From: Methanobacteriota archaeon
GTDB taxonomy: Archaea > Halobacteriota > Bog-38 > Methanoflorentales > Methanoflorentaceae
DNA: 64,000 nt
NCBI GenBank assembly: GCA_963720465.1
Contig: OY970393.1
Span: 736,001-800,000, forward strand
Direction of reading: 5' to 3'
This document shows positions 65 through 54,665 of the stretch, piece after piece. The notes beneath the pieces were generated by a model. That model was given only the letters and a program-made list of their open reading frames with translations, made no database searches and was not told the origin of the DNA. Position 1 is the first letter of the stretch, and each line of letters begins with the position of its first letter. The translations under genes and the position numbers were made by a program.

Positions 65-289
65 ATGGGCCTTTTGGAGACTTATCGCAGCAAAATCTCT
101 CTTCATCGCGCAAAAGCGGGTTATAGCTATCCTTTGATCCGACTGCCGCACATGTTCTCTCTGCTTGCGGGGTTACCCACAAGAATCTATCAGACAGTTT
201 ACGACGGAGCACTAGCCTTTCTCGTGCTTGTTTCACCTCAAGAAAAGACCTCAGAAAGTTTCAAATCCTCCGTCTTCACACGGCGTTAA
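65..289 (+). CDS. Small element-associated ORF (intN-like, possibly AbrB-like) ending in the tRNA-Val anticodon arm
   Basis: MGLLETYRSKISLHRAKAGYSYPLIRLPH...TRIYQTVYDGALAFLV; homologous to 11540-11700 and 54504-54665; last codons are ccgtcttcacacggcg (270-285). Confidence 0.65.
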   Translation: MGLLETYRSKISLHRAKAGYSYPLIRLPHMFSLLAGLPTRIYQTVYDGALAFLVLVSPQEKTSESFKSSVFTRR

Positions 290-450
290 TTTAGGCCGCA
301 AAACCCTTTGAAGCCCCCTGCTGACCATTGGATCACTGTCGCTCATAACGATCCTATCCGTGTCTTTCAGTACCCCGAAGCGCAGACCTGAATGACAATT
401 TGATCCTAGCTAGTAACTTTTTTTAACTTTTTTTTGACGGAAAAATTAAT

Positions 451-611
451 CGGCGTGATAGCGTAAGTGCTGTCGTTTCGCTGCGGCCGCTCTTTTGCCG
501 CGTGATCGCTTGAAAAACAAGGGAGTTATCAGAACTACCTTAACCTGTGCATTGCACGTTTACACATTGAGATAAAAACCGTCTGAACGGTCGCGTGCGT
601 TTCCTTCTTTT
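451..611 (+). repeat. ~160-bp dispersed repeat, copy 1 (inverted copy at 32071-32230)
   Basis: Shared blocks gaaaaaca-ggga-ttatca-aactacctta and tctgaacggtcgcgt...tccttctttt. Confidence 0.75.
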
Positions 612-695
612 TCATGATTCTAGCTGATAACCCTGTGATATTCAGCATGATTCATGTATCTGGTGCAGAACATGGAGAGGTAAAGGTTTTCTCTT

Positions 696-1313
696 ATGAT
701 TGGGCTCTTCGTCTTCGATCTCGGCAACGTCATCCTTCCCTTCGAGCACAGACAAATTACGGTGAAGCTCCACGAAGTCTCCCGAATACAGAACCGTTTT
801 ACACCTGATGACCTTTTCAGGTTTCTCTTTGATAAAGATCGGGGTTTCGTAAATCCCTACGAAGAAGGCCGCATATCGTCACTGGATTTTTTCGCGAAGA
901 TCAAAGAGAGATACAAACTGGATCTGAAATTTGAAGAATTCAAAGACATATGGAGCAACATCTTTGAAGAAGATCCCGAAGTTAACGCGATTATTACACA
1001 TCTGAAGAATAAAGGCTACCCGGTTTTTCTTCTCAGCAACACCAACGAACTCCATTTTTCCTACGTTATGGAACGTTATCCCATTATCCATTCCCTCGAC
1101 GAGTGGATTCTCTCATATGAGGTAGGCGCAAGAAAACCTAAGAAAAAGATATTTGATGTCGTCTTCGAGAAGACAGATATCGCACGGGAAGAAACGCTCT
1201 ATATTGATGATATTAAGGCATACGTGGAGGCCGCAAAGACGTATGGTCTTCAGGGTATGCATTTCAAAAACTCAAAAGATTTGTGGGAATTGCTGAAAGA
1301 AAAATGCATGTAA
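696..1313 (+). CDS. HAD-superfamily phosphatase (YihX-like)
   Basis: FDLGNV motif I, LSNTN motif II, KP and IDD motifs; ggagagg SD upstream. Confidence 0.9.
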   Translation: MIGLFVFDLGNVILPFEHRQITVKLHEVSRIQNRFTPDDLFRFLFDKDRGFVNPYEEGRISSLDFFAKIKERYKLDLKFEEFKDIWSNIFEEDPEVNAIITHLKNKGYPVFLLSNTNELHFSYVMERYPIIHSLDEWILSYEVGARKPKKKIFDVVFEKTDIAREETLYIDDIKAYVEAAKTYGLQGMHFKNSKDLWELLKEKCM

Positions 1314-1578
1314 GTAACAGATTCAGGTGTTATTTTTCAATATCAAGCACTGAACGACGCGATACCAAACAACTAAATTCTTAAGCGCGTCTAACAGTGC
1401 TTTCCGCTCAACTGAGTCAATCGGGTATATGTAAAAATCGACGCCTTCGCCCCTACCGCATCCTTTTCGTTCTATCTCAACGTAGGCATATAATTCCAAC
1501 TCAGCAATGAGTGGGCTCACTCGCTTTAATAAGCAGGTCGCTAAGATCATTCGTCGAAGATCGATAGCGAGACGCGGT

Positions 1579-1624
1579 CAGAAAATGCCTCTAAAAACGC
1601 TAAATCCTCCGTCCATATCAGGCG
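1579..1624 (+). mobile_element. Remnant of the intN-like ORF 3' end with degenerate att
   Basis: agaaaatgcctctaaaaacgctaaatcctccgtc...ggcg aligns with 241-285. Confidence 0.55.
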
Positions 1625-2383
1625 AGGGCCTCATCCTCACGGAGATCTAGCTAACGGAAATTCAAGAGCGAACAAAGTCCCCTTTTTTATGTAAACCTAA
1701 ATTCCAGCGCGATAGCGCAACGGCGCCAAGTGCTAGCGCAACCCCCCACGCGGGCCACGCTACCGGAGCTTGCTGTTCAGCTCGGCTCAGCTCGGAGCGA
1801 CAGCATTGAGCATCGTTAATCGAATCACATATCGTGCACTTAGCATCCCCATTCGCTGCCCCTTCTTGGATACCGGCGCTCACTTCGCTCGGATCACTAT
1901 ATGGCGGCGTATTGCTTGATTGCTTGAACTATCTCGTCTCCGTCGCTGTCTTTGTTGCTGTCCGCAGAGTTATGTCTGGCTGTCTGTTATCTCGGCCGTT
2001 CTAATATCCACTGTAAGTCCACATAACTATCCGATGAGTACTATAGAGCTTACCGATAGGGGCGACGAATCCTGCCGGGCCCACTATCCTTTTTTGCAAA
2101 ACTAGACGTGCGTAATGTTGAACTTGAGTAAAGCCCTGTAGCTAAAGACATAGAAGAAATGCTTAGCGAGGACGAAGAATAGAGCTGGCGTTCTTGCTAG
2201 CCGATGAATTGGACCTGACTCTTGTCTTCAGATTGAGATTAAGAAACAAACCGGGCCTAGCGCATAGCACCTGCGACAAGATTGCAGAGAATCTCATGCG
2301 GGCTGCGGTTACGATATATTTGCAATCCAGCTCGCAGGGGGTATCCTCTACCCGTTTAGGGTTGTACTCACGCCCAAATGCTT

Positions 2384-2950
2384 CTACCAGATATCTTCCG
2401 CGGTCTCTTGTGTCGTCGACCCGTTCTCCCCCGCACCGTTCGCGCATGCATCAAATGCCGACATCCCCAGTATCGAGCGGTTCTGCCGTGTGCCGTGCGC
2501 GTACGCGCCAATTTCGTTGGCGATTGGCCCAAGCGCCTTTGCCTTTGAGACGATCTTATGCATCGTTTCGGTGAACTTGATTCCCTCTGATGCGGAAATC
2601 TGATCCCAATAGAGCCGTTCGGGATTGATGCCGATTGCTTGTAAGTAGGCTTTGAGATAGGTCGTGCGCATATCGCACGCGTAGTTCCCTTTCAGGTAAT
2701 GGCAGTCGCCGAAGTGACAGCCGAGCACCATGACCATATCGGCGCCGGAAAGGAACGCTTTGACGATGAACAGCGGGTTTATTCGTCCCGTGCACATCAC
2801 CCGAATAACGCGCGCATTCGGCGGGTCCTGCATGCGCGCGGTACCCGCCCCATCCGCGCCCGCGTAAGAGCACCAGTTGCAGCAGAAGGTCAAGATACTA
2901 GGTTCCCATTGCCGCTCGTCCATTTCCGTAGCGTCTTCAGCTTGGCTCAT
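2384..2950 (-). CDS. mvhD: MvhD/FlpD [2Fe-2S] hydrogenase delta subunit (C-terminal tail probably non-native)
   Basis: FCCNWCSYAGAD, MCTGR, GCHFGDCHY, W.SASEG motifs. Confidence 0.93.
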   Translation of the reverse strand: MSQAEDATEMDERQWEPSILTFCCNWCSYAGADGAGTARMQDPPNARVIRVMCTGRINPLFIVKAFLSGADMVMVLGCHFGDCHYLKGNYACDMRTTYLKAYLQAIGINPERLYWDQISASEGIKFTETMHKIVSKAKALGPIANEIGAYAHGTRQNRSILGMSAFDACANGAGENGSTTQETAEDIW

Positions 2951-4116
2951 GCTTTCACCTCGGCAATTTTGGACAGAGGTATCGCGTCAGCCGTCGACTG
3001 TCCCGGCACATATCCCAGCGTCCCTTGAACCGACGATTGTACCATATGGGTGATCGTGGCAAGCGGGATCTTCTTCGGACACACGTTCTCGCACTGGCCG
3101 CAGTTCACACACGACGGACTCACGTGCATCAATCGCGTAAGGTGGAACATCGGGTCAGGCGGCACTGTGTCTTTAGGCACCACGAACTCTTGCTTCGTAA
3201 AGCATTCAACACACGAGCATATCGGGCACACGTCGATACACTCCCGACAGCCATCACACTTATCAAATTGGGCGAACAGTCTCTCGAATTTGTGCTCGCC
3301 GTCAAATTGGGCAAATTGCGTCGCCATGGCTTTGCGTGCCATCTTCACCATGATGCCGTCCAGCTTCTCGCGTAGGGCTATACCTTGCGGTGGCGCGTCC
3401 TTCAGCGTGATCGCGCCCGCTGCAATCGCAGTATCGAGGAGCTTTTGCCCCTTTTCCGTGCGCACTTCGACAAACGTGACTTTTCCTGCGTCGTCACCGA
3501 TGACGCCCCAGTTGCCGCACGCCAGATCGGCCATGCGCGGTATGTTGTATTCGCATCGTTGGCAGTTCGTGCGTCGGCCGTAACCCTCGGCTTCCAAGTC
3601 ATCGATGGAGAGCTCTTTGTGTTGGCCGTCCTTGGTTATGATGATGAGCTTTCCCTTATCGATCTCCTCTTTTACCACGTCCTCGGGATCAATGTCGAAG
3701 AACTGTCGAATCATCTCACGGGCAGGCCCGGGTAACATCGTCCCGCCGCAGTTGACGCCGATCATATAGACGTTGTCGAGATCGATCTGATTACGTTTGC
3801 TCAACTCGATAATGGCACGCGCGTCACACGGCTTACACGTCACCGCAATGCGCAAATCACGCGCACCATTGAAATCATTCTTTATCAATTTCGCGCTCAG
3901 CGTTGGGGCGCAGTGCAACGAGCCGGCAGCATCCGTTATCTCCTCTTTGGTGGTCGCAAAATAAGGAGCACCGTCATAGATGCTTTCACCTCTTTTGATC
4001 ACCAGCGCTCCGTCCACTAACTTCTGCTCTACCGCGGCTATGAGCACAGCGGTAATCACGCCCCCGCATTCTCCCTGTTCTTGTACTAGCTTATCTGTGG
4101 CTCTTCCGTAATACAT
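2947..4116 (-). CDS. fdhB: F420-binding formate dehydrogenase beta subunit (FrhB/FdhB family)
   Basis: GECGG, GSLHCAP, KPCD, GVNCGGT, RRTNCQRC, two 4Fe-4S motifs; start MYYGR at 4116 after an AT-rich promoter. Confidence 0.9.
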   Translation of the reverse strand: MYYGRATDKLVQEQGECGGVITAVLIAAVEQKLVDGALVIKRGESIYDGAPYFATTKEEITDAAGSLHCAPTLSAKLIKNDFNGARDLRIAVTCKPCDARAIIELSKRNQIDLDNVYMIGVNCGGTMLPGPAREMIRQFFDIDPEDVVKEEIDKGKLIIITKDGQHKELSIDDLEAEGYGRRTNCQRCEYNIPRMADLACGNWGVIGDDAGKVTFVEVRTEKGQKLLDTAIAAGAITLKDAPPQGIALREKLDGIMVKMARKAMATQFAQFDGEHKFERLFAQFDKCDGCRECIDVCPICSCVECFTKQEFVVPKDTVPPDPMFHLTRLMHVSPSCVNCGQCENVCPKKIPLATITHMVQSSVQGTLGYVPGQSTADAIPLSKIAEVKA

Positions 4117-4236
4117 ATGAGTCGCCTGATTATAATAAAAAATTATATATAATAATATATATATAATTAGTTGCTTTAAAGCTTTTCGATGCCAACGCAC
4201 CGCACTATGAGCTTTTACAAAAATTTAAAACGCGTA

Positions 4237-4648
4237 ATAGTGAGAAGAGCGTTGGTTCCGAAAAGCCAGTGCTGCAGGTCGAATCCTCCTAAGACAAAAT
4301 CCGAATGGAAAACTACGTACCTTTGCACCCACAGGTCGTTTCAGCTATTGAAGCTATGCTCGGCGACCGCAAGAACGAAGACCGCGCAGTTGGATATAAC
4401 AGCTTCCAAATGTGGATGAAGCGCCAAGAAATCCCTATGAGTCACTTTGAAGGCATTTTTTGCCAAGCGACTTGCGGAAATTCGCGGAGCAGCACGGCGA
4501 CACAATCGAATGGGAGCAGTCTAATCGAAAGTACGTGCTCACTCACGGCGTCGGAGGGGTAGATTGGAGCCATTACAAGCACCCTCTTCCCGAATCGGTG
4601 CATGATATTTATATGAAGTATTGGGGAGACGTGAGCTTGAAAACCTAA
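4237..4648 (+). pseudogene. Tyrosine recombinase, C-terminal remnant
   Basis: KPVLQVESS*DKIRMENYVPLHPQV...SDLRKFAEQHGD...THGVGGVDWSHYKHPLPE; homolog of 12430-12834; stop and frameshift. Confidence 0.85.
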
Positions 4649-4921
4649 CTGAACTGGCTTTTTTTTTGATTTTTTTTAGCTACAGTAAATGCTCTCGGCC
4701 AAACGCAGAAGTCCGGTGCAGTTTGTAAATTATCGTGCGTTTGACCACGGAAGGCATATTAGTCTATATTCTGTCCCTTATTTTACTTCGGTCAGTTGAA
4801 CGACTAGACCGCGACCTTCACGGTTAGGCTGAATGCCTCGCGGCGCGTGGAGCTGCCAGCGCAATAGCGCGACTCAAGCTCCAGCGGCGCATTAATAAAT
4901 CCTTTTTAACCAACGACCCGC

Positions 4922-6187
4922 TCATTGTCGGTATGTCTTCATCACGTAAGCGGCGATAACGAGTCCGACAATAACCAGTCCGACAATAACCAGTCCGACG
5001 ATATTGAGTTCGATAAAAATGGGCGTGACCTCAAAGCCGGACGTCGCATCTTGACTTGGGACCGCGGCTGCGTTGCTGATGGCGTAGACGTTGCCGTCAT
5101 TACTCCCCACGTAAATTACTGGGCTGACGACGGCAGGAGAAGAGAGCACGACGTTTGCGGTCGCGTAACTCCACAGCTTCGCCCCAGTGGTAGCGTTCAG
5201 GGCGTAGACGTTGCCGCCATCACTCCCCACGTACACCGTCCCGTTGGCAACGGCGGGGGATGAGTCAACATAGCTTCCGGTCGTGTAGTTCCACAGCTTC
5301 GCCCCAGTGGTAGCGTTCAGAGCGTAAGTGTTGTTATCATCGCTCCCCACGTAAACCGTGCCGTTGGCGACGGCGGGGGAGGAAGCAACCACATTTCTGG
5401 TCGTGTAGTTCCAGAGCTTCGCGCCTGTGGTGGCGTTGAGAGCGTAGATGTTATGGTCATTACTCCCTACGTAGACCACGCCGTTCACGACGGCAGGGGA
5501 GGAAAGCACAGAGTTTCTGGTCGTGTAGTTCCACAGCTTCGCAGCGGAGGTAGCGTTGAGAGCGTAGATGTTATGGTCATTACTCCCTACGTAGACCACG
5601 CCGTTCACGACGGCAGGGGAGGAAAGCACAGAGTTTCTGGTCGTGTAGTTCCAGAGCTTCGCTCCTGTGGTGGCGTTGAGAGCGTAGACTTTGCCATCTT
5701 CGCTGCCGACGATGACCACACCGTTCACGACGGCGGGGGAGGAGTGAACGTAGCTTTTGGTCGTGTAGTTCCAGAGCTTCGCGCCTGTGGTGGCGTTGAG
5801 GGCGTAGATGTTATGGTCATTACTCCCTACGTAGACCACGCCGTTGACGACGGCGGGGGAGGAAAGCACAGCGTCTCCGGTCGTGTAGTTCCACAGCTTC
5901 GCAGCGGAGGTAGCGTTGATAGCGTAGATGTTATGGTCATTACTCCCCACGTAGACCACCCCGTTGACGACGGCGGGTGAGGAACCCACATAGCCTCCCG
6001 TCGCGACGCTCCACGTCAGAGGGCCATTCGACCTCCCTGCCACAGGACAGTAGTCGCCGCTATGCGCCGCATTATACCGATATTGCATTGTATCGTGCTG
6101 TGCCACTGCAGGAACCGAAGAGCCTGCGAGCAAGACGGTAATGAGAAGAATGACTGCAGCAAATGAGACGATTTTGGATACGCGCAT
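4922..6187 (-). CDS. Secreted/membrane-anchored PQQ-like beta-propeller protein (BamB-like)
   Basis: Signal peptide, about eight 40-aa repeats SSPAVVNGVVYVGS.D..IYALNA.TG.KLW, C-terminal TM helix. Confidence 0.9.
   Translation of the reverse strand: MRVSKIVSFAAVILLITVLLAGSSVPAVAQHDTMQYRYNAAHSGDYCPVAGRSNGPLTWSVATGGYVGSSPAVVNGVVYVGSNDHNIYAINATSAAKLWNYTTGDAVLSSPAVVNGVVYVGSNDHNIYALNATTGAKLWNYTTKSYVHSSPAVVNGVVIVGSEDGKVYALNATTGAKLWNYTTRNSVLSSPAVVNGVVYVGSNDHNIYALNATSAAKLWNYTTRNSVLSSPAVVNGVVYVGSNDHNIYALNATTGAKLWNYTTRNVVASSPAVANGTVYVGSDDNNTYALNATTGAKLWNYTTGSYVDSSPAVANGTVYVGSDGGNVYALNATTGAKLWSYATANVVLSSPAVVSPVIYVGSNDGNVYAISNAAAVPSQDATSGFEVTPIFIELNIVGLVIVGLVIVGLVIAAYVMKTYRQ
5085..6010 (-). repeat. 120-bp coding tandem repeats (propeller blades)
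   Basis: Near-identical 120-nt units visible at the nucleotide level. Confidence 0.9.
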
Positions 6188-6289
6188 TGTTCTTAGAACG
6201 TTCGTTGACGCACCGAGAACGTGTCAGACATACGATAAAGGCTCCGATTTGAAAGCGATAGGAGAGGCAGCACTTAAGGAAATCTGCGC

Positions 6290-6547
6290 TCACGACTGTT
6301 CATACGCATAGCCGTATTCGCGAGCCTGACGTATTTGCACTTGTATCCTTTTGATAATCCGCCGCAACTGCTGACGTGTGCTGTCAGGAAGCGACGAGTC
6401 GTGCACGCGGTCTTGCAGGTACCGGTAAGCTTCCCAACTGGTCGAGCACTTCCTAAAAAGTTTTTCGGCAGCCATATCGGCATAGTCGTTTTTAAAGTCC
6501 GCAATTTCAAGAATGAGTTCATCGACCTCTATACAATCGTTATTCAC
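6290..6547 (-). CDS. Small helical hypothetical protein (a sliver of a paralog at 30479-30532)
   Basis: ORF; AEKLFRKCSTSWEAY motif recurs in the sliver. Confidence 0.6.
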   Translation of the reverse strand: MNNDCIEVDELILEIADFKNDYADMAAEKLFRKCSTSWEAYRYLQDRVHDSSLPDSTRQQLRRIIKRIQVQIRQAREYGYAYEQS

Positions 6548-6834
6548 GGTGTGAGATAGCGGGTTTATCTGGGTAATTGTTAGCTAGAAGTGGAGCGAAA
6601 ATGTAGTCAAATTCAGGCCATTGTGCACGACGTTTTAAAGCACGCAACAACGGCCTTTATTTGCCATCGCGCCGATTCTGGTAATCAGTTACTTAGTAAG
6701 CACATAACGCTGCATAGCGCCACCATGCTGGTGATAGTACGCGTGAAGAAGAATGGAAAATAGGACGAGACGAACCCGAAGGCGGAAACTCCCTTGTAAG
6801 AGACGAACATAAGATCGCCAAACAGAATGAAGAA

Positions 6835-7431
6835 TTGTGGGACTCGAGAGCCGAAACGTATGACACCCGTTTTAGTTTTACACGCTGGACACAGAAGAAA
6901 CTGGTCTCTCTACTGCAGTTGGGCGATAATCCTTATCTTCTGGACCTTGCGTGTGGCACGGGCTGGGCTCTCCAGTATGCTGCTAATCGAACCAATGGGC
7001 AAGGCGAGTTTTACGGCGTCGATAATTCATCAAAGATGATTGCACAGGCACAAGCCAAATCTCAAAGCTGCGGCAGCCTGCATTTTTATAAAGCAAGAGT
7101 TGAGGCGCTCCCCTTCGACGACGACTTCTTCCATGTCGTTATGTCTTCCAACGCCTTCCATCACTTTTCAAACCCCGAAAAGGCACTTAGAGAGGCGAAC
7201 AGAGTGTTGAAGCCGAAAGGTAAGCTATACATTTTGGATATCACAGCCAACAACCCCTTTATGAGGCTCTTGGACAGATTCAGCCGTAAGGTGGAGCCAG
7301 CCCACGTCAAACTGTATTCAAGAAAGGAGTTTGAGGCCTTATTTGGAAGAGCCGGGCTATGTTATATTACGAGTAAACGCATCATTCCAGCAATCGAAGT
7401 TCATATAGCTGAGAAATCAAAATGTCTTTAG
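6835..7431 (+). CDS. Class I SAM-dependent methyltransferase (UbiE-like); start uncertain
   Basis: LLDLACGTG, GVD.S..M, LPF.D..F, RVLKP.G. Confidence 0.85.
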   Translation: MWDSRAETYDTRFSFTRWTQKKLVSLLQLGDNPYLLDLACGTGWALQYAANRTNGQGEFYGVDNSSKMIAQAQAKSQSCGSLHFYKARVEALPFDDDFFHVVMSSNAFHHFSNPEKALREANRVLKPKGKLYILDITANNPFMRLLDRFSRKVEPAHVKLYSRKEFEALFGRAGLCYITSKRIIPAIEVHIAEKSKCL

Positions 7432-8351
7432 TTTTAAAGGAGTGAGAAAAAATAAATTGCGAAGAGAAACTAAAAATCCTGATGGATGCTTGCGAGCAGG
7501 CATTAATGTACGGTTGGGAAGATAATTTCAATTGGAGAGAGGACAAGCCTAGTGCTTTTTGGGATGAAAAAGAAGCTTGGACAATCATAAAAGAAGCGTT
7601 TGTTAAGGTTGAAGACGACAAAAAATGATAGCGCCATAACGTGTGAAAAAGGCGTTTGCTCAATGGGTTAACAGATATTTGACGTGTTTCCTTATCCGGT
7701 TCTACCTTCTTCCTTCCCTGAAATGTGAAACAAGAGCGTTGAGAGCTTCCACATCATCTAGGCTAATCTGGCACTTTTCAAAGGTTTTGGTTTTCACTTC
7801 TTCAAGCACACGGCTTAGCAAGTCAGCTTCGCCGTCTGTCAGAACTAACGCCTTGGTGAGTATTTTCTCCCTCCCACTCGGTGCTAATCACATGGATTGC
7901 ATAGCATATTGCATATTTGCTTTGTTCTGATGGCCTTTCTGTCGACAAAGCGGCCTCTATTTTAGCCTCGAGAAGCTTGAAGCTTTCAAATTTAAATGAA
8001 TCAACACAAGAAGCTCTGAATAGTCGAGAACGTCTGTAATGTAAGCAATATGGAACATGCTTTCTATCGCCGCGCAATCTGCAGCGAGTGTAGTTTCCGC
8101 ATCTCTTGCAGTTCACCGAGGGTGCATCCCTTGACGAACGACGCCACCTTGTCCAGTTCGTGATAGACGTTCTGCAGAGCACAGCGCAAAAAGACCATGC
8201 TGCGCGCGGTGTGAAACTGAATTTGTGATAAAAAAGAAGAGACTCGCAGGCGATTACGGGCGCTTCCTTCAATAATTTGAGAAAACTTCTTAAATGCACA
8301 AGTCTTTATAAGCAAATCCAGCGCGGCTGGTCAGCAAAGCAGGTGATTAAG

Positions 8352-8771
8352 ATGAAATTCAACTTAGATGTCGTTACGATTCTGTCGCACATCGATGAAC
8401 TATCGAGAGTCCACAGTACGATTGTGATGGCGGGATTAGCCGATACCCTTAAAAATGCCCAAGGGATTACGCTTTTTGCTCCTGAGAACGAAGCATTCGA
8501 TAAGCTTCAAGGAAGCACGATAATGAGTGCGCTCGAAGACGCTGACAAAGCGAAGAACATCTTGACCTATCACGTCGTTCCAGAGAGGCTTGTGGCCTCG
8601 AACTTGCGCAAGGAAAAAAGCGTTACTACCATGCAAGGCGCAACGCTCAAGATTGAGGAGCAGCGCTGGTTGCGCCACGGCATAAAGGTCAATGACGCGG
8701 TGGTAAAAGAGGCCGATATTGAAGGCAGCAACGGTGTCATCCACATTATTGATACTGTCTTAGTGCCGTAG
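8352..8771 (+). CDS. Fasciclin (FAS1) domain protein
   Basis: TLFAP.NEAF, LTYHVV, NGVIHIIDTVL; aggtga SD. Confidence 0.92.
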   Translation: MKFNLDVVTILSHIDELSRVHSTIVMAGLADTLKNAQGITLFAPENEAFDKLQGSTIMSALEDADKAKNILTYHVVPERLVASNLRKEKSVTTMQGATLKIEEQRWLRHGIKVNDAVVKEADIEGSNGVIHIIDTVLVP

Positions 8772-9309
8772 TATCGTGGCTTTACTCTCTCCTGCCGGGG
8801 CTAAAACACATGGACCGCATGACATGTTTCATGTGTGATTTTTTCTAATGGCGATATTAGCGTCAAAATGGCCGCCGGGTTAGTCTCTGATATAGCGCGG
8901 GGGCTCTACAGCGTCAAGGTGCGCTCGCGGCCCTGCTAGAATCGACGTGACAAACCCAGTGAGGGTCTGGGCAAGCTGGTCTTTCAAGCGCAAATGTGCG
9001 CAAATACGATCCTTTTGAGTTTATCCAATGAGTCGCTATATTTCACCCATGCAACCAACCGCTCCTTGGTTTTACCACGCCTGCTTATACTCATAAAATT
9101 GTGAAACCTTAAAGCGCCATAATCTGACAACTACGCATATATCTTTGTAACAGCGCTTTGTTACAACGGCCTGTCTGCAGGGTCGCAATTGACGAAAGAA
9201 GGCAATATTGACGAGATTAAGCAACACAAGCTATAAGAGCGAGCAACTCATAGCTTTTGCTAGGAAGCACGGAACTTCGGTTGCTCGAACGCGTCAAGTG
9301 GCGATTCTG

Positions 9310-10361
9310 ATGTCCACATCCGACTTCGGGCCGGTCTATACCGACGCTACTCTTTTTGATACACTATGCCAAACGCTGGAATCAGATCTCGCGAAAGAAG
9401 CGTGCAAAACTCTTAAGAAAGCTGTCGCTGATCCAATTTGCGCTGCTGTTAAACAGAGCATCCGCGATTCATTGCGCACTGAAGACGCGCACGACGGCAC
9501 AACGCATTATAGCGCTGAAACAACCCCCGCTCGGTTCGGCACCACGTTCGAGAACACGATATCCCGTGCAGTGTGTGCGGCGCTCAAGCAGGCGATGGAC
9601 GACACCGCGTGCAGCACTCTTAAGAGCACAATTCACCACAGCTTCGAGCTCGCGCTCGGGAGAGAGCACATAGAAGACGTGCGTTTCGTCCCCTCGATGA
9701 CTCCCCAACTTATCGACTCTTTCTGCACATCTCTTGAACAGATCACGGGAAATGCCGTATGCGCTGCATTGAAGCAGGCAATGGACGACACTGTTTGCGC
9801 CGCTCTTAAAAAGGGCGTCCAAAGCTCGTTCGCGCAGCTAGCGGGCCACAATCGCCGAGAGGATGACATCGCCGAGATTCCGGAGCTGTGGCTCGACCGC
9901 GAATTTACGTGGCGAGCGGCGGCTGATGACGATGGCGCTACAGACGCATTTGGCAGGGTAGAGGACGCCGTCGTTAAAGTGGTCTGCAATCGACTAAAAG
10001 CAGCAGTGACGAGCACGCTCTGCAGACTTCTCCAACAAACGATCAAAGATACTGTCGAAAAGCACTCGACGGAATGCAAGGCAAAATGTCAACGAGACGT
10101 TGAGCAGCCTAGGGCCTACGAACGATCACGAATACCCATGCGTCGATTGCACTCGTTTTTACGGTTGGTTTGGTCGTCGTGTTGCTTGCTGCCATACTAG
10201 CTCCAGGCGCTCTTCCCCCCACTACCGTTAGTAGCTCTAGCAGCCCCAATCCTCCTAGTAATAATATTATCCTAAGAAACCCCAGTGCCCCCAGGCCTCC
10301 CAGTAATGCCACTGCTACTGCCACTCCTACTGCCACGCCTACTGCCTCGCCCGTGATATAA
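9310..10361 (+). CDS. Cys-periodic helical repeat protein; probable frameshift before a C-terminal TM and Pro/Thr tail
   Basis: Ten CxxL/V motifs; alternative frame from ~10140 gives ASIALVFTVGLVVVLLAAILAPG...PTATPTASPVI. Confidence 0.5.
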
Positions 10362-10616
10362 GCGGCTGTCGAGATGCCTGTTAAGCACGTGTTAGGCGCT
10401 AATTTCAGCAATGGCAGGTGCAATGTTCCTTTGGCTGCCGACCTTTCATCCTGTTGGGATAGAATCACAAGCAATCAAGTAGCTGAACAAGTAGCGCTTA
10501 AATTATAGGCTCCCCCTTCCCTGGTAACCAGTGCGAGATTGCTTCTAGCAAAAAAACCTAATAGCATCGGGCAAACTAAACGCTTTATCTTGTCGGATGC
10601 ATTCTTTTTAGTTGTT

Positions 10617-11343
10617 ATGACCATCGCGATAGGAATTAACTTCGGAACCTACGTTTTGCTAGCTGCAGATACTCGCGCTAGTGGCTACAATCTGCATCGC
10701 AACGAAGAACAATGAAGATGATCAAGAGGAGATTTGTTGTACAAATATAGGAATAGTTAGTGGGGTAGGGAGCATCGAACTTCTTGAGCCCGTGAATGCT
10801 AAATTCAACCAGATAGTCGAACTGAGCTCTTCCGATGTACTCGAGAGAATCGTGCGCAAGGAAAGACGTCGTTTCTCAATGCGTTACCCGCAAGTTCCCG
10901 ATGAATACGCCGAGCAAGTCAAAAACACGTGGTGGATTTTCAGTTGTCGACAGCTTAATTATGACAAGAGAGAGCTTACGCTCGAGCTGCGTGTTATAGA
11001 TCTTCTCTCGAAACTTCTGAGGGCGGATAAAAAGAATCATCCTTATTTGTTGCCCGCATTCGGGGCGACTAAACAAGATTTACTTGATATTACAGGTTCT
11101 CTTAAGGGATCGATAAAATCTTATGAGGACTTTGAAAGCTTACGAGATAGCATCGAGTATCACTGGAAAAAAATTCACCTTCTAATACAAGACATTCACC
11201 CCAAGTTTTCTAGTATCAGCTCCTGTAGCCAGGTAGGTTTCTGTACGATAGACGGCATTATAAACAAGTCTAGGATTGCGAAAAATATTGATGGGATTCC
11301 ATCCTTGACAAAGGAACTGATTGCAGCGCCACGTCAAGCTTGA
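10617..11343 (+). pseudogene. Ntn-hydrolase/proteasome-beta-like protein, frameshifted
   Basis: MTIAIGINFGTYVLLAADTR N-terminus, then a shift into ORF 10681-11343 (GIVSGVG). Confidence 0.55.
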
Positions 11344-11503
11344 CCAAAAATAAGAGAGTCAGAAGCTGCATTTTTTGTCAGTTAGCTGATCGCCTTCGCG
11401 ACGACGCACTTCAGCGGGAGGAGCATACCTCATAGAGGCAAGCGCTACGCCAAAAGCACGTTGGTATAGCACAAAAAGCCCTTGAAACGCAGCGGCAGAG
11501 AAT

Positions 11504-11516
11504 CATAACGGTTATG
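11504..11516. promoter_or_regulatory. Palindrome CATAAC-G-GTTATG upstream of the element ORF (candidate operator)
   Basis: Perfect 6-bp inverted repeat 23 bp before ATG 11540. Confidence 0.35.
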
Positions 11517-11539
11517 TTTGACGGCACCTCCAGAAACGC

Positions 11540-11750
11540 ATGCAACCGATCTGCACGCATAAGATAAGCATCCAAAGCTCAAAGCCATCGCATGCCTACC
11601 CCATTATCGGGCTCCCTCGTGAGTTCCGCGAACTGGCTGGTGCAACCGCAGAGATCTATCAAACAAGCTATGACATGGAATCGCTTTCTTAGTGAAGATC
11701 GTCGATCGTTCTAAAAGGAAGCCCATCAAGGGCTCCAATTCAGGAAAGGA
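11540..11750 (+). pseudogene. intN-like ORF, frameshifted copy
   Basis: MQPICTHKISIQSSKPSHAYPIIGLPREFRELAGATAEIYQTSYD / GIAFLVKIV aligns with ORF 65-289. Confidence 0.75.
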
Positions 11751-11795
11751 GCCTTCACACGGCGGAGGTCGCCGGTTCGAATCCGGCCGAGGCCA
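11751..11795 (+). mobile_element. att site: 3' half of tRNA-Val(CAC)
   Basis: gcc-TTCACAC-ggcgg anticodon arm, aggtc, T-arm gccgg-TTCGAAT-ccggc, cgaggcca; no 5' half upstream. Confidence 0.85.
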
Positions 11796-11856
11796 TCGTT
11801 CTTTTTGGGATTTAGAAGAAGCAGCAGTCTCCATCGAGTTTCAAGATTCTGGGTGC

Positions 11857-11889
11857 AAGTTGTCTACTTCGAGCGAAAAGTTGTCTACT
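11857..11889 (+). repeat. 12-bp direct repeat AAGTTGTCTACT x2 at a 21-bp period
   Basis: 11857-11868 and 11878-11889, between att and the recombinase. Confidence 0.8.
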
Positions 11890-11899
11890 CCGCCTGTAG

Positions 11900-12834
11900 A
11901 TGGTCACGCCATCATTAGCAACATTATTACTTGATTTTAAGATCGGCAAACTATGTAGCTACACAGAAGCACGTGCAATAGGTTTGGCTCGGAAATCTGT
12001 CGATTGGATCAATCGCGCTTCAAAGATCTTCTAGCGAGCTACACACAGAAAGATCACTAAGGTTTCAATGGATCGTCTTCGGTCTTATGTGTTAGAGAAA
12101 TACCAGAGCTCGTGGTCAAAGAGTAAGATTCTAACTTTCGCAAAAGCATTTTTGGCATATCTCACGAAGACGCGGCTTGATACCTCGTATCAAGCTTTCA
12201 GCATCTTCCTTGAGCTGCCCAAAGTGGTCAAAGAGCGAGAGAATGTGACAAGCAGGATTGTCACTAAAAAAGACGTAGAGCGGATTCTTGACCATATACA
12301 TCGCGCAGAGTGTCACGGAATTATTAGCACGTCGAGAGCGGAGCAGTACACGGCATTCACTGTTTTTGGCGCATTCACAGGCCAGCGAAGCATGGCAACG
12401 ATGATGAAGCTCCCGTTGGCCAATTGGGCGAGGCCTTACGGGCTCCGAAACCAGTGCTGCAAATAGAGCCGTCTCAAGACAAGATTCGCATGGAACACTA
12501 TGTTCCATTGCACCCACAGGTTATTGAAACTCTTCAACCACTGCTCGACGGGCGGCATGATGATGAGCTGATGTTCCGCCACGGTTCGTTCTGGATGTGG
12601 GCCAAACGGCAGCGAATCCTCATGTCGCAGTTCAAAGGCCATTTCGTGCTCGGCGATCTTCGCAAGTTTTGCGAGCAGCATGGCGACGCCATCGGCTAGG
12701 ATCAGTCGAACCGCGCATATATTATGACGCACGGGGTGAGCGGCATCGATTGGAAGCACTATAAGCATCCGCTTCCTGAGAACGTGTATGACGTGTATAT
12801 AAAGCATTGGCAAAATACCCAGCTAGGCAACTAA
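11900..12834 (+). pseudogene. Tyrosine recombinase/integrase, near full-length, inactivated
   Basis: FTGQR (R), QDKI (K), GDLRKF, THG, HYKH (Y); TAG at 12032 and 12697, 1-bp frameshift near 12412. Confidence 0.88.
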
Positions 12835-13186
12835 GTCTCGGCAATGTTCAGCAGCTAGCATAATACTTGTGCGTTGAACTCTGAGCACTTAATCGTTCTG
12901 ACTAGCCGCGCGCGGCTTAGCACAAATTATATGTTATGATCATAATCTCCTCGAAACGCTGCTGTATCAGTCACCACTTGAAGTGGTAAGATCTCAGCAT
13001 CAATTCAAGAATGTGAGTACCACATTAACACGACGGCAGTTTATCCAAGGCTCAATGATCAGGGCCTGCAGGACGTGCGGATGAGCCGGGCTAACGTCGT
13101 CCCTTAATTTTTTATATCGTTAATCCGAATGACAATTCATCAACCGGAAATGGAGAATTCAAGATACTTGATTGAGGGATGAGGAT

Positions 13187-14362: not shown

Positions 14363-14841
14363 CACGTTTTTCCCGACGGGCCCGCGCCGAGGCGCTCCGC
14401 GCTGCACAGCTTGCAGTCAAAGCGAAGTACCCTGATCCCTACTTCTGGGGGGTGTTCATCTGTCAGGGTGATCCCGCTCCACTCTCGTAAGAGGATGATC
14501 AAGCGACAAGCCTATTTTTCAGACCGAATGAAAACGATCCATATACAGGTAGATCACGTGCCCGGGTGCGAGACAAATTAGCCAACCGCGTTGGAAAGTT
14601 GATCTGACCATGTGCGTTGATCAAGATCCTTTATACGGCGTCTCGCAGAAGGAGCGAGTAAACTTAGTACTTGGCTGAAGAATGTATTGGCTAAAATACG
14701 TAGACGGATTCTGCTCACTTGGGTTAGACGTTGCATGTGCACCAACAAAGGAGAAAAACGCATCAGGTCATGTTCTCGAGCACAACTAGCAGCTGGACTA
14801 GTAAACAATTTGAATAAAAAAAGCGGGTTAAGGAGGTTAAT

Positions 14842-16263: not shown

Positions 16264-16337
16264 ACGGTGGAAACGGTCAAAAACGTTTATTCAATAATGA
16301 TGAGTCCTTTTTTCGCGTTGAAAATGGGGGTCTTATA

Positions 16338-39072: not shown

Positions 39073-39090
39073 ATCTTTATAACTGAATTA

Positions 39091-39631: not shown

Positions 39632-39684
39632 GGGGACTCGGAGGCGATCGATATCGAAGAAATATGGATTGAGAATTTTGGTCA

Positions 39685-43197: not shown

Positions 43198-43718
43198 TCA
43201 GAGGACCCTAGACGCGAACGGGATCTTCAGAACCAGATAGGCTGCCGCAAAACAGAGCGGAACCGTGATCACCGCTGCCAGACCGAACTTGAGCAGGTGC
43301 TCGAGAGAGAGTCCCATCAGCGCAACGGCAACGAATACGATGATTGGGGCCTGGATGACATAGACGGTGTAGGAGTGTCGCTGTAGGAATCGGGTGAAGC
43401 TGCCCGACCAGTTGAACCGGTCACGGAAGAGCGTGACCAGTCCGAGGGTCATTCCCACCGCAACGGTCGAATCCCACAGCGCATAGACCGCAGACTGCCA
43501 GGACCCGTAGCCTGTACATTTATGACGCCTCCGCTGATCGCAATGGGAAAGACAATGATCGTCGCGACCAGCACGGCGAGCGCCAGTGGGTCGTTGAGGG
43601 TCGGCTCCACGTAATAGAAGGCCCCCGCCGCAGTGTAAACGATTGCCAGGTGGTGCAGCACCACCAGCGTGATCAGCCAGGTCCGCAGGTTGTCGGCGAA
43701 ATAGAGGCGACCGGACAA
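43198..43718 (-). pseudogene. Acyltransferase-3 (OpgC-like) with a large internal deletion
   Basis: RLYFADNLR..L..LVVLHH N-terminus joined directly to the C-terminal helices (SYTVYVI.API). Confidence 0.75.
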
Positions 43719-46201: not shown

Positions 46202-46495
46202 AAAATGGCGCTGAAATGCTGGGCTCATTGTTGACTTTTATTCAGTCGCTAATAATAACAAAAACGGGAAGCTAGCTGCAGCCGCAGCAGGAATGAAAGA
46301 AGACATTAAGGAGGGAAATAGTAAATGCCACATCCACTTTTGGCAGCACTGAGAATTACCGTAAGCATCGTCGTAGTCGTTGTACTGATCTGGGGGGCCT
46401 ACACGCTGACGCAGATACGCAAAACTCTTGAGCAGCTTCGGAAGCCGTAGCTGCCTTGCATGATTTTTTTGAGCGGTTCTACTGTCTCCCCGATT

Positions 46496-46616
46496 GAATT
46501 CCAAGTCTCTCCAATATCGCATATACACGTCATACACGTGCTGGGGGAGCGGATGCAGATTATTACTCCACTGAACTCCCGCAGCTGTGGTGAAACACAC
46601 GATCGATTCGACTTAT
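46496..46616 (-). pseudogene. Tyrosine recombinase, extreme C-terminal remnant
   Basis: GVQW...HPLPQHVYDVYMRYWRD; shares acgtgtatgacgtgtatat with 12782-12800. Confidence 0.85.
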
Positions 46617-47159
46617 TCTTCTGATCACCCAGCGCTGCACGGCAATTTTGATTGCAGAGTAGGATCTTTGCACTCCCCGTGTGGCAAATCTATTCTGCAA
46701 GAAGTTCTAGGCGCAAAATACCAGCTTATTTTACATTGTGCTGCGTTAGATAGCTAGATATGCGTTATTATCTAAAAATAGCGAACCTAGTAGGCGCTAA
46801 GGTGCGCAACGCTCACATTGTAAATCTTGTCCTCGCGCCTTGCAGCCAGTTGAATGCTAGACAGCGAAGCCTTTGTAAGGCGACTGACAAGAAATGCATA
46901 GGTAACCCTTATCGATAGATAGAACAGCAGGTTTACTTTTCTTTTTGCTTAGCTCCTGATCTTATTATTTTTTTGATTTTGACGGCTTATAGGCCTTCTA
47001 TCGAGGTAATATAGCTGAGCCCTCCAACAGCTCTAAATTTAAAAATAAACGATAAAAGAGCTGATAGAAAGAATAACTAGAAAACGCTGCAGTATGTTGA
47101 AACCTATACCTAAAGAAAAAAAAAGAAAGAGATTTTATGTATTCAAGGTTATGACTGAA

Positions 47160-48192: not shown

Positions 48193-49500
48193 TCGTTCAC
48201 CTCCTTTGTGGCTGTCGCCTAGTTGTGTGTCTTTAGGTAAAAACATATGGATCGGATAGAAGCACCCGTCGCTACTTGTTGCACGACGCGCGATGCTGCA
48301 CCATGCTGTAAAAAGGCAGTGGGCGCCAACGTGATGGTCAATCCGACCTTACCCGAGCGAATTTTTCCAATTGCTATACATCGCTGTTGTGCCTGTGTTT
48401 ATGATCGTCGCCCACTGAGCGCGCTATGCGACAGAAACCCAAGGCTGAACCCAATCATGGCGGCCCAACTGAGTGCGAGGGGGTCGCCGCACTGCCAAAC
48501 AAGCCGAGATTAAACCCATCAACGACATAGGTAATCGGCGAAAAATAGACGGCGATCCGTGCAAACCCCAGCCCTGATTGTCAAAAAATGGAAGCCAGAA
48601 CAGCTGCCTTAAGTTTCAGTTATGCACCAGCCCTAATTCTTTCAGCGACTTTCGCTCGTCCTGATGGGCGATAAGCACGATATTTTAGGCTCTCGCCCGA
48701 TCCGGTGCACGACATAAGAATCATCAAACTCAACAAGCTTATCGCCAGTCTTGCGGAACGTCGCTCCCGCGAACCGTAACAAGTGAATAGTGGTTGCTTA
48801 TCTGTGTTTCCTCTAATGACGCAATCTTCAATGATGTCTGCCTGATGCTCTTATAAAACCCGCTTGCTTGGCGCGTTCCCTTTGACCAATAGCAAGCGCA
48901 GAGAAGATATATCCATTTTTAGATTTCCTTTGATGCAGAGCCTCTTTTTTGGCCTATTGCTTCAAGGAAGTCGATCGCACAAAAGCCGGTTACATCTATC
49001 CAATGACAAGATTGCCGTGCATTAGCAGCGCTCAAACCGAAACATAACGTTCCTTGCGTGGGGGGTCTTCCTTCGTTTTTTTTTAAGTGTTTGACTTGAC
49101 CTTAAGCTGTCATCGGCCACTATGAGGGCTCACTCCCACCGTAATTATTAAATAGAATGATTAATAATGACAGAATCACTATGATGAACAACCTTCTAAC
49201 GATTTCAGAGAAGGCAACCCAAACGGCAAACCTGTTTGGCATAGACTCAGAGAGAAGATCGCGGCTATCCGCTGCACTAGCCATTACCGTGTGCCTAGGC
49301 AGTATCTGTTCGTGGAGCCTCATCCGGGCACCGCGTCAGAAGCTTTTTTCGATAGATGCGGCAGCACGTTCATTAGCGTTCATCGTATTTCTACGGTCTT
49401 TGCCATTCTAAAGCCGCTTGCTGAACGGCCCTTGGCAAATGACAGTTGCTGCATTTGAGTGGATACACACGTGACTAAAAAAATTCAGGAGAGTAAACGT

Positions 49501-52175: not shown

Positions 52176-52626
52176 GCTTCTGCCAGCTTTTTGCAGGATT
52201 AAACGGCCTTAAAGTTACGCCAAAAGGCAATTCGGTGACGTGAAAAAAGGGCATTTACTCCTCCGTTGATCGAAATTAGCTATCAAAAACGGCCATCTCC
52301 TGCGCATTCGGCTAAAAAGTGGCTGTCGCTTCACCGTGTCACTTGGAGATATCGCTCGTTGGTCATACGTTTCGCCTCAATCGCGCGGCTAGGTAAACCG
52401 TTTCCGACGCGGGCGGATCTACTTCCGGCATTAGTAACTCTTGTCTCGCGCAATGCCCGCCGTAGAAATGGCGCGTCATCACTTTGCTGTGATCTCTTTC
52501 GTTCCTCCTATACAGACCGCATCAAAAGCCGTTCTTAAAAAATCACAACAGTTTTTGGTTTCCTTAGCTCCGATAGGCAAATCAGAGATATCACAAATGG
52601 TAGGAGTAGAGAGCGCTTCTCAAACT

Positions 52627-54024
52627 CTATCGTTTTCTCATGAGAATGTATATTGCTCCCACTACAAGCGCTGGTATGCCTAAGCCTAGGAGCGAGAACT
52701 CACCGACGGGCTGGGGCGGCAAACTCGCCACGCTACTCGTCTGTGCGCTCGCCTGTTCTGTCGGCACTGCAATTCCAGGCACCGAGGCATTCGTCGTGTC
52801 AGTTGTCACGGGAGCAAGCTGTGTTGCCTGTGGACTTGGCGTTGAAGCTGCTGTTACGACAGTTGGCTTTGCGGTTGCTGTTACGACCGTTGGCTTTGCG
52901 GTTGCTTTTACGACCGTTGGCTTTGCGGTTGCTACGACCGTTGGCTTTGCGGTTGCTTTTACGACCGTTGGCTTTGCGGTTGCTACGACCGTTGGCTTTG
53001 CGGTTGCTGTTACGACCGTTGGCTTTGCGGTTGCTACGACCGTTGGCTTTGCGGTTGCTTTTACGACCGTCGACTTTGCGGTTGCTGTTACGACAGTTGG
53101 CTTTGTGGTGGGAGTCTTTGCAACGAGCTTCTGCGTTGGCGTGGGCGTCACCTTAGGTGCGGGTGTAGCAGTCGGCTTGATGGTCGGCGTCGCGGTTGTC
53201 CATGCCAGTTTATCGGTGTTCCAGCTTCCACCACTGCTAAAATCAACGATCGAATTGTATTGCCGGTATACAAAGAAGCCGCCGTTGAGCCAGGCAGTCT
53301 TGACTGATGCGATGCTGTTCCCGTCTGAAGCCGTATTTCCGAGGTTCGCGCCGCCTACTGCGTCGTTGTACCACGATCCGGTTCCGCTAAGCGCGCCGCC
53401 AGTCTCGTCCCAATGGGTTTGATGCACAGGGGCGTTTCCGTCCTCACCGATCCAGACCGTCGGATATGGTTCGTGTCCCGGCCCTGCACTGGTGTCCCAC
53501 GAAATTTGAACGTAATAATTGTGGCCTGCGCGGAGTACGGTATCAGTTGGGATGTACCACCGCGCCCCGCTGCCGCCGGTCGTGGCGCGGTAGATCGTCA
53601 GTTCGCTGTGGCTGGCGCCGTAGTTGGTGTCAATTTCAATCATGAAACCGCCATACGCTTTGTCCCAAATTTTCTGGAAGCGCTGGCCGGGTACTACTCC
53701 GGCGAAATGAAACCCTATCTCCCACGAAACGACGTTCTGGTTGTTGGTTGCGGTGCCCGCCGGGATGCCGATAAAATCATTTTGCCCGATGGTACCCCAA
53801 TATGGGTAGCCGTTTGATTGGGTCTGAAATAAGCTGGGGGTGCTGACGTACGCGTTATAGCTGGTTCCTGCCGTTCCCTGGTTGACCCACGTTGATCCCG
53901 CTTGGGGGACGTAATATATCGTGGGGCTAGGCTGTGCTGCCACTAGGGTGGTTGTAACGCCTGTAAATAATACAGTAATGAGGAGGGTGACTACACAAAT
54001 TGAAACGATATTGTGTGCGCGCAT
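52627..54024 (-). CDS. Secreted surface protein: beta-rich domain, Thr/Pro linker, C-terminal sorting-like anchor
   Basis: Signal peptide; (TAKPTVV) repeats; GEF-TM-RKR tail. Confidence 0.85.
   Translation of the reverse strand: MRAHNIVSICVVTLLITVLFTGVTTTLVAAQPSPTIYYVPQAGSTWVNQGTAGTSYNAYVSTPSLFQTQSNGYPYWGTIGQNDFIGIPAGTATNNQNVVSWEIGFHFAGVVPGQRFQKIWDKAYGGFMIEIDTNYGASHSELTIYRATTGGSGARWYIPTDTVLRAGHNYYVQISWDTSAGPGHEPYPTVWIGEDGNAPVHQTHWDETGGALSGTGSWYNDAVGGANLGNTASDGNSIASVKTAWLNGGFFVYRQYNSIVDFSSGGSWNTDKLAWTTATPTIKPTATPAPKVTPTPTQKLVAKTPTTKPTVVTATAKSTVVKATAKPTVVATAKPTVVTATAKPTVVATAKPTVVKATAKPTVVATAKPTVVKATAKPTVVTATAKPTVVTAASTPSPQATQLAPVTTDTTNASVPGIAVPTEQASAQTSSVASLPPQPVGEFSLLGLGIPALVVGAIYILMRKR
52846..53104 (-). 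repeat. 24/27-bp coding tandem repeats
   Basis: acgaccgttggctttgcggttgct units, about ten copies. Confidence 0.95.
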
Positions 54025-54086
54025 AGGTTGCCTCGGAAAGACGTGTTTGACGTAAAATGTTGCTTAACGAAAAACGCGTTACAGAA

Positions 54087-54100
54087 GTATATAAAAGCTT
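54087..54100 (-). promoter_or_regulatory. Archaeal TATA box
   Basis: aagcTTTTATATac ~65 bp upstream of the start. Confidence 0.6.
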
Positions 54101-54503
54101 TGGTTGTGCGTGACCATAAAAACGATGCTGCGGTGTTCAAATGGCCAAAAAATGGCTACGATCGAACGATTAAACTTCCGCCTGGTCGCCTTTCTGTGTT
54201 CCACCGCCCGCGTCGCAGCCGCTTAGCCGGTGCCTCTTCTTTCTTAGCGGGTTCTTCCTCTTCGGAGTGCTGCGCAGTCAGTCTTTGAAACGCAGCTAGC
54301 CGGTACGCGCAAACCCGCCGTGAGAGCAACAATCCATACGGCAAGCGTTTCCAAGATGATTGCGCGCGTTGCTGTTCATTTGTTCTTAGTCGTCGAAGGC
54401 TAATCATAACGACTAAATGACAGTGTCGACTTTCCACGACTGGAGTTGAATCAAAATGGTGACCACCACGCCATACGGCGTTCATAAGAACCCTGCTCGG
54501 CAC

Positions 54504-54665
54504 GAGGTTCAGCGCGGGACGATAAGTGCCACGACGCGAAAGCAGGATACGACTATCCGACGATTCGGCTTCCCTTCACGTTATCAGGGATTATTGGGTT
54601 GCAGACGCGTATCTACCAGACGGTTCACGAACAGGGCACTTGCGTCCCTTGTGGTTGTCTCGCCG
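54504..54665 (+). pseudogene. intN-like ORF remnant
   Basis: HDAKAGYDYPTIRLPFTLSGIIGLQTRIYQTVHE / ALASLVVVSP aligns with ORF 65-289. Confidence 0.85.

Follow-up and report, generated by a model that had tools for sequence, protein, structure and literature searches.

The 64,000-nucleotide stretch analysed here (the window, positions 736001-800000 of the single 2.31-Mb contig, with 51.7% G+C, that makes up the genome of a Methanoflorentaceae archaeon) contains fragments of a single tyrosine-integrase family, five N-terminal and three C-terminal ones, along with a likely remnant of an attachment (att) core. Judged by sequence, the gene layout is that of the split ('suicidal', SSV-like or type I) integrases, in the order Int(N), att and Int(C), and since att lies inside the reading frame, integration would separate Int(N) from Int(C). 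We consider it probable that small elements made up of an integrase and cargo integrated serially at tRNA sites and that deletions removing att then fixed the cargo, which would amount to gene capture. The window itself seems to be a fast-changing region where small gene-carrying mobile elements piled up and decayed; its genes point to a methanogen-like archaeon (MvhD/FlpD, FrhB-like, DUF2111, archaeal-type GAPDH and acetyl-CoA synthetase), and it holds no tRNA gene according to ARAGORN and no Rfam family. A preliminary description, made from the letters of the window alone, had already proposed repeated integration and accretion, and this part of its interpretation is supported, most strongly by arrays of integrase fragments across the genome rather than by the window.

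Genome-wide, a DNA hidden Markov model (HMM) of 1019 positions finds 67 Int-derived loci, namely nine full copies, four 5' parts and 54 3' tails, and tblastn together with an N-piece protein HMM finds 32-39 N-derived loci. When the genome's own hits are taken together with 71 loci from relatives, 201 of 233 Int matches end at model positions 1000-1019, the 3' end of the gene, and the starts of the fragments are bimodal, falling at 0-120 or at 620-960 of 1019 with few between. The tails stand co-oriented in arrays with a spacing of 0.3-2 kb, often downstream of a full copy, and cassettes of a single open reading frame (ORF), on either strand, lie between them. Such arrays occupy, among other places, genome positions 329-336 kb, 364-387 kb and 2292-2313 kb. 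Tails in the relatives' loci share the strand of the anchor integrase in 63 cases and have the opposite one in four, and consecutive hits in the genome itself lie on the same strand 38 times and on opposite strands twice. The integrase is present in all 23 genomes searched in the family (4-83 first-look candidates each) and in 21 of 277 genomes of other families (2-12 candidates each); its protein relatives come from bog, fen and peat metagenome-assembled genomes, and records of Methanoregula, Methanospirillum and Archaeoglobus match less strongly.

Conservation at the codon positions is 0.81, 0.83 and 0.64 in the tails and 0.80, 0.86 and 0.61 in intact genes. As this codon-periodic pattern is the same in both, the tails are best regarded as little-decayed fragments of many different integrases, and we rejected the idea that they are a conserved DNA site; the pattern also bears out the earlier view that the diverged copies stem from several events. 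For 11 of 121 tails, downstream DNA of at least 150 bp is shared with a full-length integrase locus elsewhere in this genome or in another one, supporting the view that a tail with its cargo is a truncated integrase-cargo element, while 19 share downstream DNA only with other tails and 91 with nothing in what was a limited comparison set. Some units of tail and cargo correspond to a full integrase with the same cargo in other genomes, and the same cassette is found behind tails in four arrays. It is plausible that a tail could also act as a promoter for its cargo, judging from the occurrence of TTTATATA in the tail of one cassette, which we call X, upstream of a co-oriented ORF; contrary to this idea, only three of the seven cassette ORFs of one array, counted by eye, are co-oriented with the tails.

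The split layout can be read from unsplit homologues. In one of them (P0123) the N piece is followed by FTRRRSPVRIRPSPS, the translated 3' half of tRNA-Val, and then by the start of Int, reading ...KSSAFTRRRSPVRIRPSPS..., and another unsplit ORF (P0002) spans ...EIRTRVVASTGP-IFEYKPQNE, bridging the end of another N subfamily and its C start. Elsewhere in the genome analysed (genome positions, where window position 1 is 736001), an N ORF at 2276606-2277121(-) ends in VVASTGP*, overlapping tRNA-His, and an Int 22 kb away, at 2298532(-), begins with VASTGR; an Int ORF at 1558660-1560180(-) begins within tRNA-Val(TAC), and another N ORF extends into tRNA-Asp. As att, the subfamily of the window uses the 3' half of tRNA-Val, and other subfamilies use halves of tRNA-Asp or tRNA-His. 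Behind eight N pieces lies a 3' part of tRNA-Val beginning in the anticodon loop, and we read the putative att core as CCTCCGTC-TTCACAC-GGCGGAGG, with inverted arms around the anticodon loop. At three N pieces (genome positions 69095, 71903 and 177829) att is interrupted after TTCACACG by about 80-100 bp and resumes as a second anticodon-arm-like hairpin, CGCC-TATATCA-GGCG(A/G)AGG.

All five N pieces of the window lie on the plus strand, as do three listed upstream from 721 kb, so that the group spans 721-791 kb. The first, at 65-289(+), is a small ORF of 74 aa with the motif AKAGYSYPLIRLP...TRIYQTV; tblastn finds over 30 further places in the genome that match it, with E down to 1e-32, and the N-piece HMM matches it with E 2.8e-38. 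The ORF ends within the att site, in ...AATCCTCCGTCTTCACACGGCG, after which it diverges, and this end is the anticodon loop and 3' stem strand of tRNA-Val(CAC); the earlier statement that the piece is cut just after the anticodon arm was literally right. Here att is cut after TTCACACGGCG and followed by TTAATTTAGG..., and the same junction to other DNA recurs in two further copies. Such att sites, severed at the anticodon arm and continuing into other DNA by one and the same junction in three copies, are the only hints of a possible promiscuous recombination. A decayed Int(N) copy at 54488-54698(+), seen before as a piece at 54504-54665, is likewise clear (tblastn 1e-14, HMM 2.9e-18) and lies 60 bp left of the boundary (54758-54761) of a PALP (cysteine-synthase-like) cassette. 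Absent from the pieces that the preliminary description lists is an N-piece remnant, DRTKAGYIYPMTRLP, at 48973-49032(+) (HMM E 0.005), 29 bp left of the boundary (49061) of an acetate-transporter/acetyl-CoA synthetase cassette. At 1579-1630(+), on the right edge of a HAD-hydrolase cassette, we find what is likely a short remnant of an N-piece 3' end with an anticodon-arm-like hairpin, AATCCTCCGTC-CATATCA-GGCG. The 11-mer AATCCTCCGTC has 10 genome copies, two of them within the window, the piece has a 77-bp paralogue at genome position 1282226, and window 648-1624 is matched as a single unit by one contig (G002:C91) of a relative; the identification of 1579-1624 as a small-ORF piece is rated likely, not proven.

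The fifth N piece belongs to a near full-length, unsplit integrase pseudogene at 11540-12835(+), which the preliminary description does not list either and in which an N part (11540-11700, HMM E 7e-8), 41 nt of tRNA-Val(CAC) and a C part follow one another. Over 41 nt the att within this gene, at 11751-11796(+), equals positions 30-70 of the genome's tRNA-Val(CAC) without a mismatch, and the near full-length Int(C) part, at 11909-12835(+) (HMM positions 95-1018, E 9e-231), carries frameshifts and stops. A 'tRNA-Trp' with a 488-nt intron called by intron-permissive ARAGORN at genome positions 747219-747795 (window 11219-11795) was set aside as an artefact because its 3' half is this att site. 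A further junction gene is found at genome positions 721421-722557 and an N-to-tail fusion at 335057-335393. In addition, three full genes of one integrase subfamily (1558447-1559660(-), 1901705-1902932(+) and 2104214-2105374(+)) are each followed, across a similar spacer of 37-70 bp, by a tail of a different subfamily, which looks like a fossil tail inherited within the element.

The other two C-terminal pieces are the recombinase tails that had been placed at 4237-4648 and 46496-46616(-), and both are genuine: the first is a 5'-truncated, frameshifted Int(C) tail at 4254-4647(+) (HMM positions 624-1018 of 1019, E 1.2e-76) and the second an Int(C) tail at 46493-46618(-) (HMM positions 884-1011, E 1.9e-12). 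They match the 3' end of a protein of about 340 aa with about nine near full-length copies in the genome. As for two att-like pieces described as doubtful, that at 21744-21776 has gained and that at 21270-21288 has lost. The region 21736-21760(+), CCTCGTCTTCACACGG, contains CGTCTTCACACGG, a 13-mer of the att core with only five genome copies against about 0.07 expected by simple arithmetic, so that it is probably a real att-core remnant; a shorter version, TCTTCACAC, has 20 genome copies, near chance level. The piece at 21270-21288 matches neither a tRNA nor any other Rfam family, lies conserved within a block common to the relative G002 and is left unsupported, and a tRNA-like reading of 21262-21345 was dropped, having neither Rfam nor ARAGORN support. 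At window position ~21320, about 290 bp are added in G002 (C28 1315-1608), with a 10-bp direct repeat, GGGATTCGAT, on either side.

An AlphaFold2 (AF2) model of the integrase, built on 36 homologues and with a predicted local distance difference test score (pLDDT) of 78, has XerA (4a8e) as its leading PDB match in Foldseek (E 8e-5), followed by Tn1549 Int, IntI (2a3v), Cre and lambda Int; nearly all of the top matches listed are tyrosine recombinases, and eight have E <= 1e-3. The residues R195, K227, R288, H311 and Y321 are invariant in 36 of 36 homologues and, by their position and by the motif R...K...xxR...H/W...Y, are the putative catalytic residues. According to the model, the protein is a tyrosine recombinase with a predicted two-domain fold and a catalytic domain like that of XerA, Cre or lambda Int; the N piece models poorly (pLDDT 54). 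At the level of sequence, the host's own integrase protein matches no Pfam or NCBIfam model at E <= 1, PF00589 included, and PHROG integrase families match it at only 1e-5. The preliminary description had assigned the protein to the family of Int-pTN3 of Thermococcus, and this finds no support. None of the 36 family members matches PF16795 (Phage_integr_3), given in PMC8371274 as the domain of SSV, pTN3-like and pT26-2-like integrases, at E <= 1, one of the 36 matches PF00589 with E 0.077, and the family profile has no match among PDB sequences, so that a pTN3 relationship by sequence is not supported and what the two share is the fold and the split-gene layout only.

Compared with same-genus genomes, the window falls apart into segments of 0.3-3 kb, mostly 85-97% identical to scattered places. 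Around the window, synteny with the closed genome of one relative (G011) is limited to scattered blocks, many of the matches being concentrated in one 90-kb region of that genome, whereas three relatives are collinear with a repeat-poor control region (genome positions 200-220 kb) along all of its 20 kb, at 86-94% identity; synteny was examined at these two places only. At least four of the relatives in this family have closed genomes. The description of the window as a cassette-like mosaic thus stands. The only long stretch found in order in relatives is a fumarase/succinate-dehydrogenase (fumarate-reductase)-like block with a cupredoxin gene at 14797-21328, which is 98% identical to G002. 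The control region is 86-89% identical in the same relative, which suggests that the block was recently transferred between species and makes it a candidate for such an event. Individual boundaries that fall at remnants can be clean. A segment of tail and PQQ beta-propeller gene at 4248-6465 is replaced by 217 bp in G009:C58, which joins window 4247 to 6466 (in locus L079, 6221-7403 corresponds to window 7659-6466 and 7621-9755 to window 4247-2113), so that this indel starts exactly at the tail; including this one, three comparisons (G009:C58, G010:C9 and a paralogue in the genome itself) break at 4247-4255, just before the tail. Furthermore, at the equivalent of the tail at 46493-46618, G009:C18 has an integrase 5' part beside the same hydrolase cassette.

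The remnants are far from evenly spread. Their number per 64 kb is over-dispersed (mean 2.7, variance 18.8) and correlates with the amount of paralogous DNA, a mere proxy for accessory DNA, with rho 0.59, or 0.58 when remnants are masked and 0.45 for 20-kb bins; 54-59 of 99 remnants lie within top-quartile bins. Paralogous DNA makes up ~17% of the genome and 36-37% of the two 64-kb bins that cover the window, for which a separate blastn search gave 40%. Being over-dispersed and correlated with paralogous DNA, the remnants do not follow a uniform distribution, and the enrichment in accessory regions anticipated by the preliminary description is found in repeat-rich, non-syntenic DNA. The same clustering would also be seen if the integrase were a bystander, that is, if the mosaic arose mainly from homologous recombination after DNA uptake, from other mobile elements or from duplication and loss within gene families, and debris accumulated where insertions are tolerated. 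In favour of such an origin, many repeat-rich bins of the top quartile have no remnant (3 of 10 at 64 kb, 14 of 29 at 20 kb) and the ~43 kb of window 21-64 kb hold only four small ones, but the correlation of remnants with repeat density persists after masking, and a scan of 81 window ORFs revealed neither a transposase nor another recombinase. Homology that often ends at ORF ends, together with a boundary randomisation that is not significant, can likewise be set on the side of a bystander; against it are the units of tail and cargo that equal a full integrase with the same cargo in other genomes, as well as the indel in G009 that starts exactly at a tail. Taken together, we regard a bystander role as rather unlikely.

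Under serial capture, elements with an integrase and one or a few cargo genes would integrate successively at one tRNA anticodon-arm site, each integration leaving Int(N) at one end of the element and Int(C) at the other. Each arrival would make an N-att-C junction gene with the Int(C) of the older element, as may have happened at window 11540-12835, and deletions taking att and the adjoining 5' part of Int(C) would immobilise the cargo. Captured genes would then be left beside 3' tails and cut N pieces, and the loss of att by deletions that begin at the 5' end of Int(C) would explain why hardly anything but such tails and cut N pieces survives, while a terminal Int(C) beside the tRNA, without an N partner, would stay whole. 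Window 1-14.8 kb could then be several co-oriented decayed elements: the N piece at 65-289 as the last part of an element situated further left, the HAD cassette and its N-end remnant at 1579-1630, a unit of 7.5 kb in total running from the tail at 4254 through cargo to the N piece at 11549 and att at 11796, and the Int(C) at 11909-12835 with a cyclophilin cassette. The remaining kilobases are a mosaic with sparse remnants, which such integrations may have built.

Several observations weigh against serial capture. Bimodal fragment starts are not predicted by random deletion. Among 75 full Int(C) starts in the relatives' loci, an upstream N piece could be detected for only 14, and N pieces are rare within the tail arrays, so that extra deletions or undetected N subfamilies must be assumed. 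The absence of remnants from 14 of 29 repeat-rich 20-kb bins counts here too, and no circular or excised form of the element was seen in the assembled sequences examined. Within the window, most cassette boundaries have no recognisable remnant, and a randomisation over the alignments available was not significant (P 0.23): an independent boundary lies no more than 70 bp from three of eight remnants, where 1.7 would be expected. Moreover, where cassette copies cease to be homologous is often the end of an ORF, many of these points being start or stop codons, for which divergence of intergenic DNA could account as well as discrete mobile units. Given these ends, the density of boundaries and the P value, we treat the coincidence of remnants and boundaries in the window as suggestive only; the coincidence of cargo boundaries with remnants that the preliminary description proposed to look for is seen in clean individual cases and is not significant for the window at large.

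The array structure is also what an integron-like platform would leave, in which the 3' tail of the integrase would be the recombination site, specific or homology-dependent as for Int-pTN3, and tail-bearing cassettes would be excised and inserted behind an integrase. Co-oriented tails that follow a full integrase and are separated by single-ORF cassettes, the same cassette behind tails in four arrays and truncation points concentrated in the last ~240 bp all agree with this, and Int-pTN3 recombines homologous segments of ~100 bp with low specificity, as the preliminary description had it and as reported in PMC5495485. Yet we find such a platform improbable, as the tails have no DNA-level conservation beyond the coding pattern, the common unit is a tail followed by cargo (the right edge of cassette X is not in a tail), short tails have no consistent half-site upstream, for which reason a likeness by eye of CATCCGCTGCCTGAGCACG to the att core was also rejected, and the family is not a pTN3 relative by sequence. 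A bolder form of serial capture, which we offer as a possible but doubtful proposition, would have the lineage run a genome-wide cassette exchange in which minimal split-integrase units, stacked in head-to-tail order at the anticodon-arm sites of tRNA genes, become fixed once att is lost and move metabolic genes between species (e.g. the 6.5-kb fumarase block), the tails perhaps still acting as recombination or promoter sequences; this would be an archaeal counterpart of the integron.

Some further features of the window deserve mention. An FMN-dependent dehydrogenase gene at 19082-20133 is split into ORFs 19082-19867 and 19912-20133 and is thus probably a pseudogene; further gene fragments come from an LCM methyltransferase (34446-34790), from acyltransferase (43198-43718, in pieces) and from a PALP enzyme without its N-terminus (54856-55593). 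The PQQ-type beta-propeller gene at 4922-6187(-) has internal repeats and up to 64 paralogous alignments in its own genome. Four multi-copy units, at 6279-6642, 7645-7934, 40983-41361 and 59366-59873 (14, 5, 11 and 6 copies in the genome, respectively), each hold about one short ORF with no Pfam match and recur in relatives and beside integrase arrays (e.g. genome positions 362654-363475). Two stretches of ~110 bp each, 22534-22646 and 32443-32546, match the same places in relatives on opposite strands and thus form an inverted repeat pair 10 kb apart, and two paralogous DUF2111 genes within 9 kb, at 30542-31119 and 39041-39634, have similar upstream DNA. Sequence of window 2001-12000 is 90-95% present in four sequencing runs of one study, and many peat and wetland runs contain 21-28% of its words.

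Many traits of this family are those of the type I integrases (SSV1, pTN3 and pT26-2), for which the accounts in PMC8371274 and PMC7253208 give an att within the integrase ORF that overlaps a tRNA gene, int(N) and int(C) left at the element ends by integration, several tRNA specificities per family and hybrid junction genes. In contrast to those, the family described here matches neither PF16795 nor any other Pfam or NCBIfam model and occurs in peat and wetland methanogens that are mesophilic, each genome carrying dozens of fragments, whereas the type I system is presented in PMC8371274 as one of hyperthermophiles, with five Methanosarcinales integrases besides. In the survey of Badel et al. 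2020 (PMC7253208), identical tandem insertions are said never to have been observed; the genomes examined here have both N-att-C junction genes and tandem arrays. Tycheposons of Prochlorococcus, as presented in bioRxiv 10.1101/2020.12.28.424599, are tyrosine-recombinase elements with cargo that integrate repeatedly at tRNA genes, pushing older ones inward, and fragmented integrases and partial tRNAs scattered through islands are common to both systems. They differ in being bacterial and in having att outside the integrase gene, while in our family integration would split the integrase; by the same account, they carry a replication module.

With integrons, the arrays share mostly single-gene cassettes, one orientation relative to a tyrosine recombinase gene and cassettes common to several arrays; unlike in integrons, what is repeated here is part of the recombinase gene, lying upstream of its cargo, and IntI (2a3v) appears only as one fold match among many. 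An attC-like element was not identified, hairpin potential not having been examined; at more than 50 boundaries in the window no common motif is seen, and the integrase tail, which recurs at boundaries as no other element found does, has conservation of the coding type only. The idea also matches gene capture in Sulfolobus, where, as reportedly found by She et al. (2001, 2004), elements trapped once the integrase gene is partitioned decay, their genes persisting in the chromosome beside int fragments and tRNA pieces; the difference is that here the units are gene-sized, stand in long co-oriented arrays and are shared between species in different orders. The full-text literature that we searched, which did not extend to subscription journals, and which we searched for integrases of Methanoflorens and for suicidal integrases of methanogens, contained no description of this system. 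Gene capture by partitioned integrases and the building of islands at tRNA genes are known, and what differs here is a family unrecognised by Pfam, its mesophilic hosts, its high copy number, and the junction genes and tandem arrays.

We believe that these results matter in two ways. Integrases with split genes have been described as a speciality of hyperthermophiles (in the account given in PMC8371274), and here the same layout fills the genomes of mesophilic peat and wetland methanogens. Furthermore, the integrase arrays mark regions where single genes, including genes of central metabolism, get reshuffled between species. If the link between arrays and reshuffling is causal, it would provide a concrete mechanism by which uncultured peatland methanogens acquire and exchange genes, and the succession of integration, junction and decay stages preserved in their genomes would offer a natural series in which to study how captured genes become fixed.

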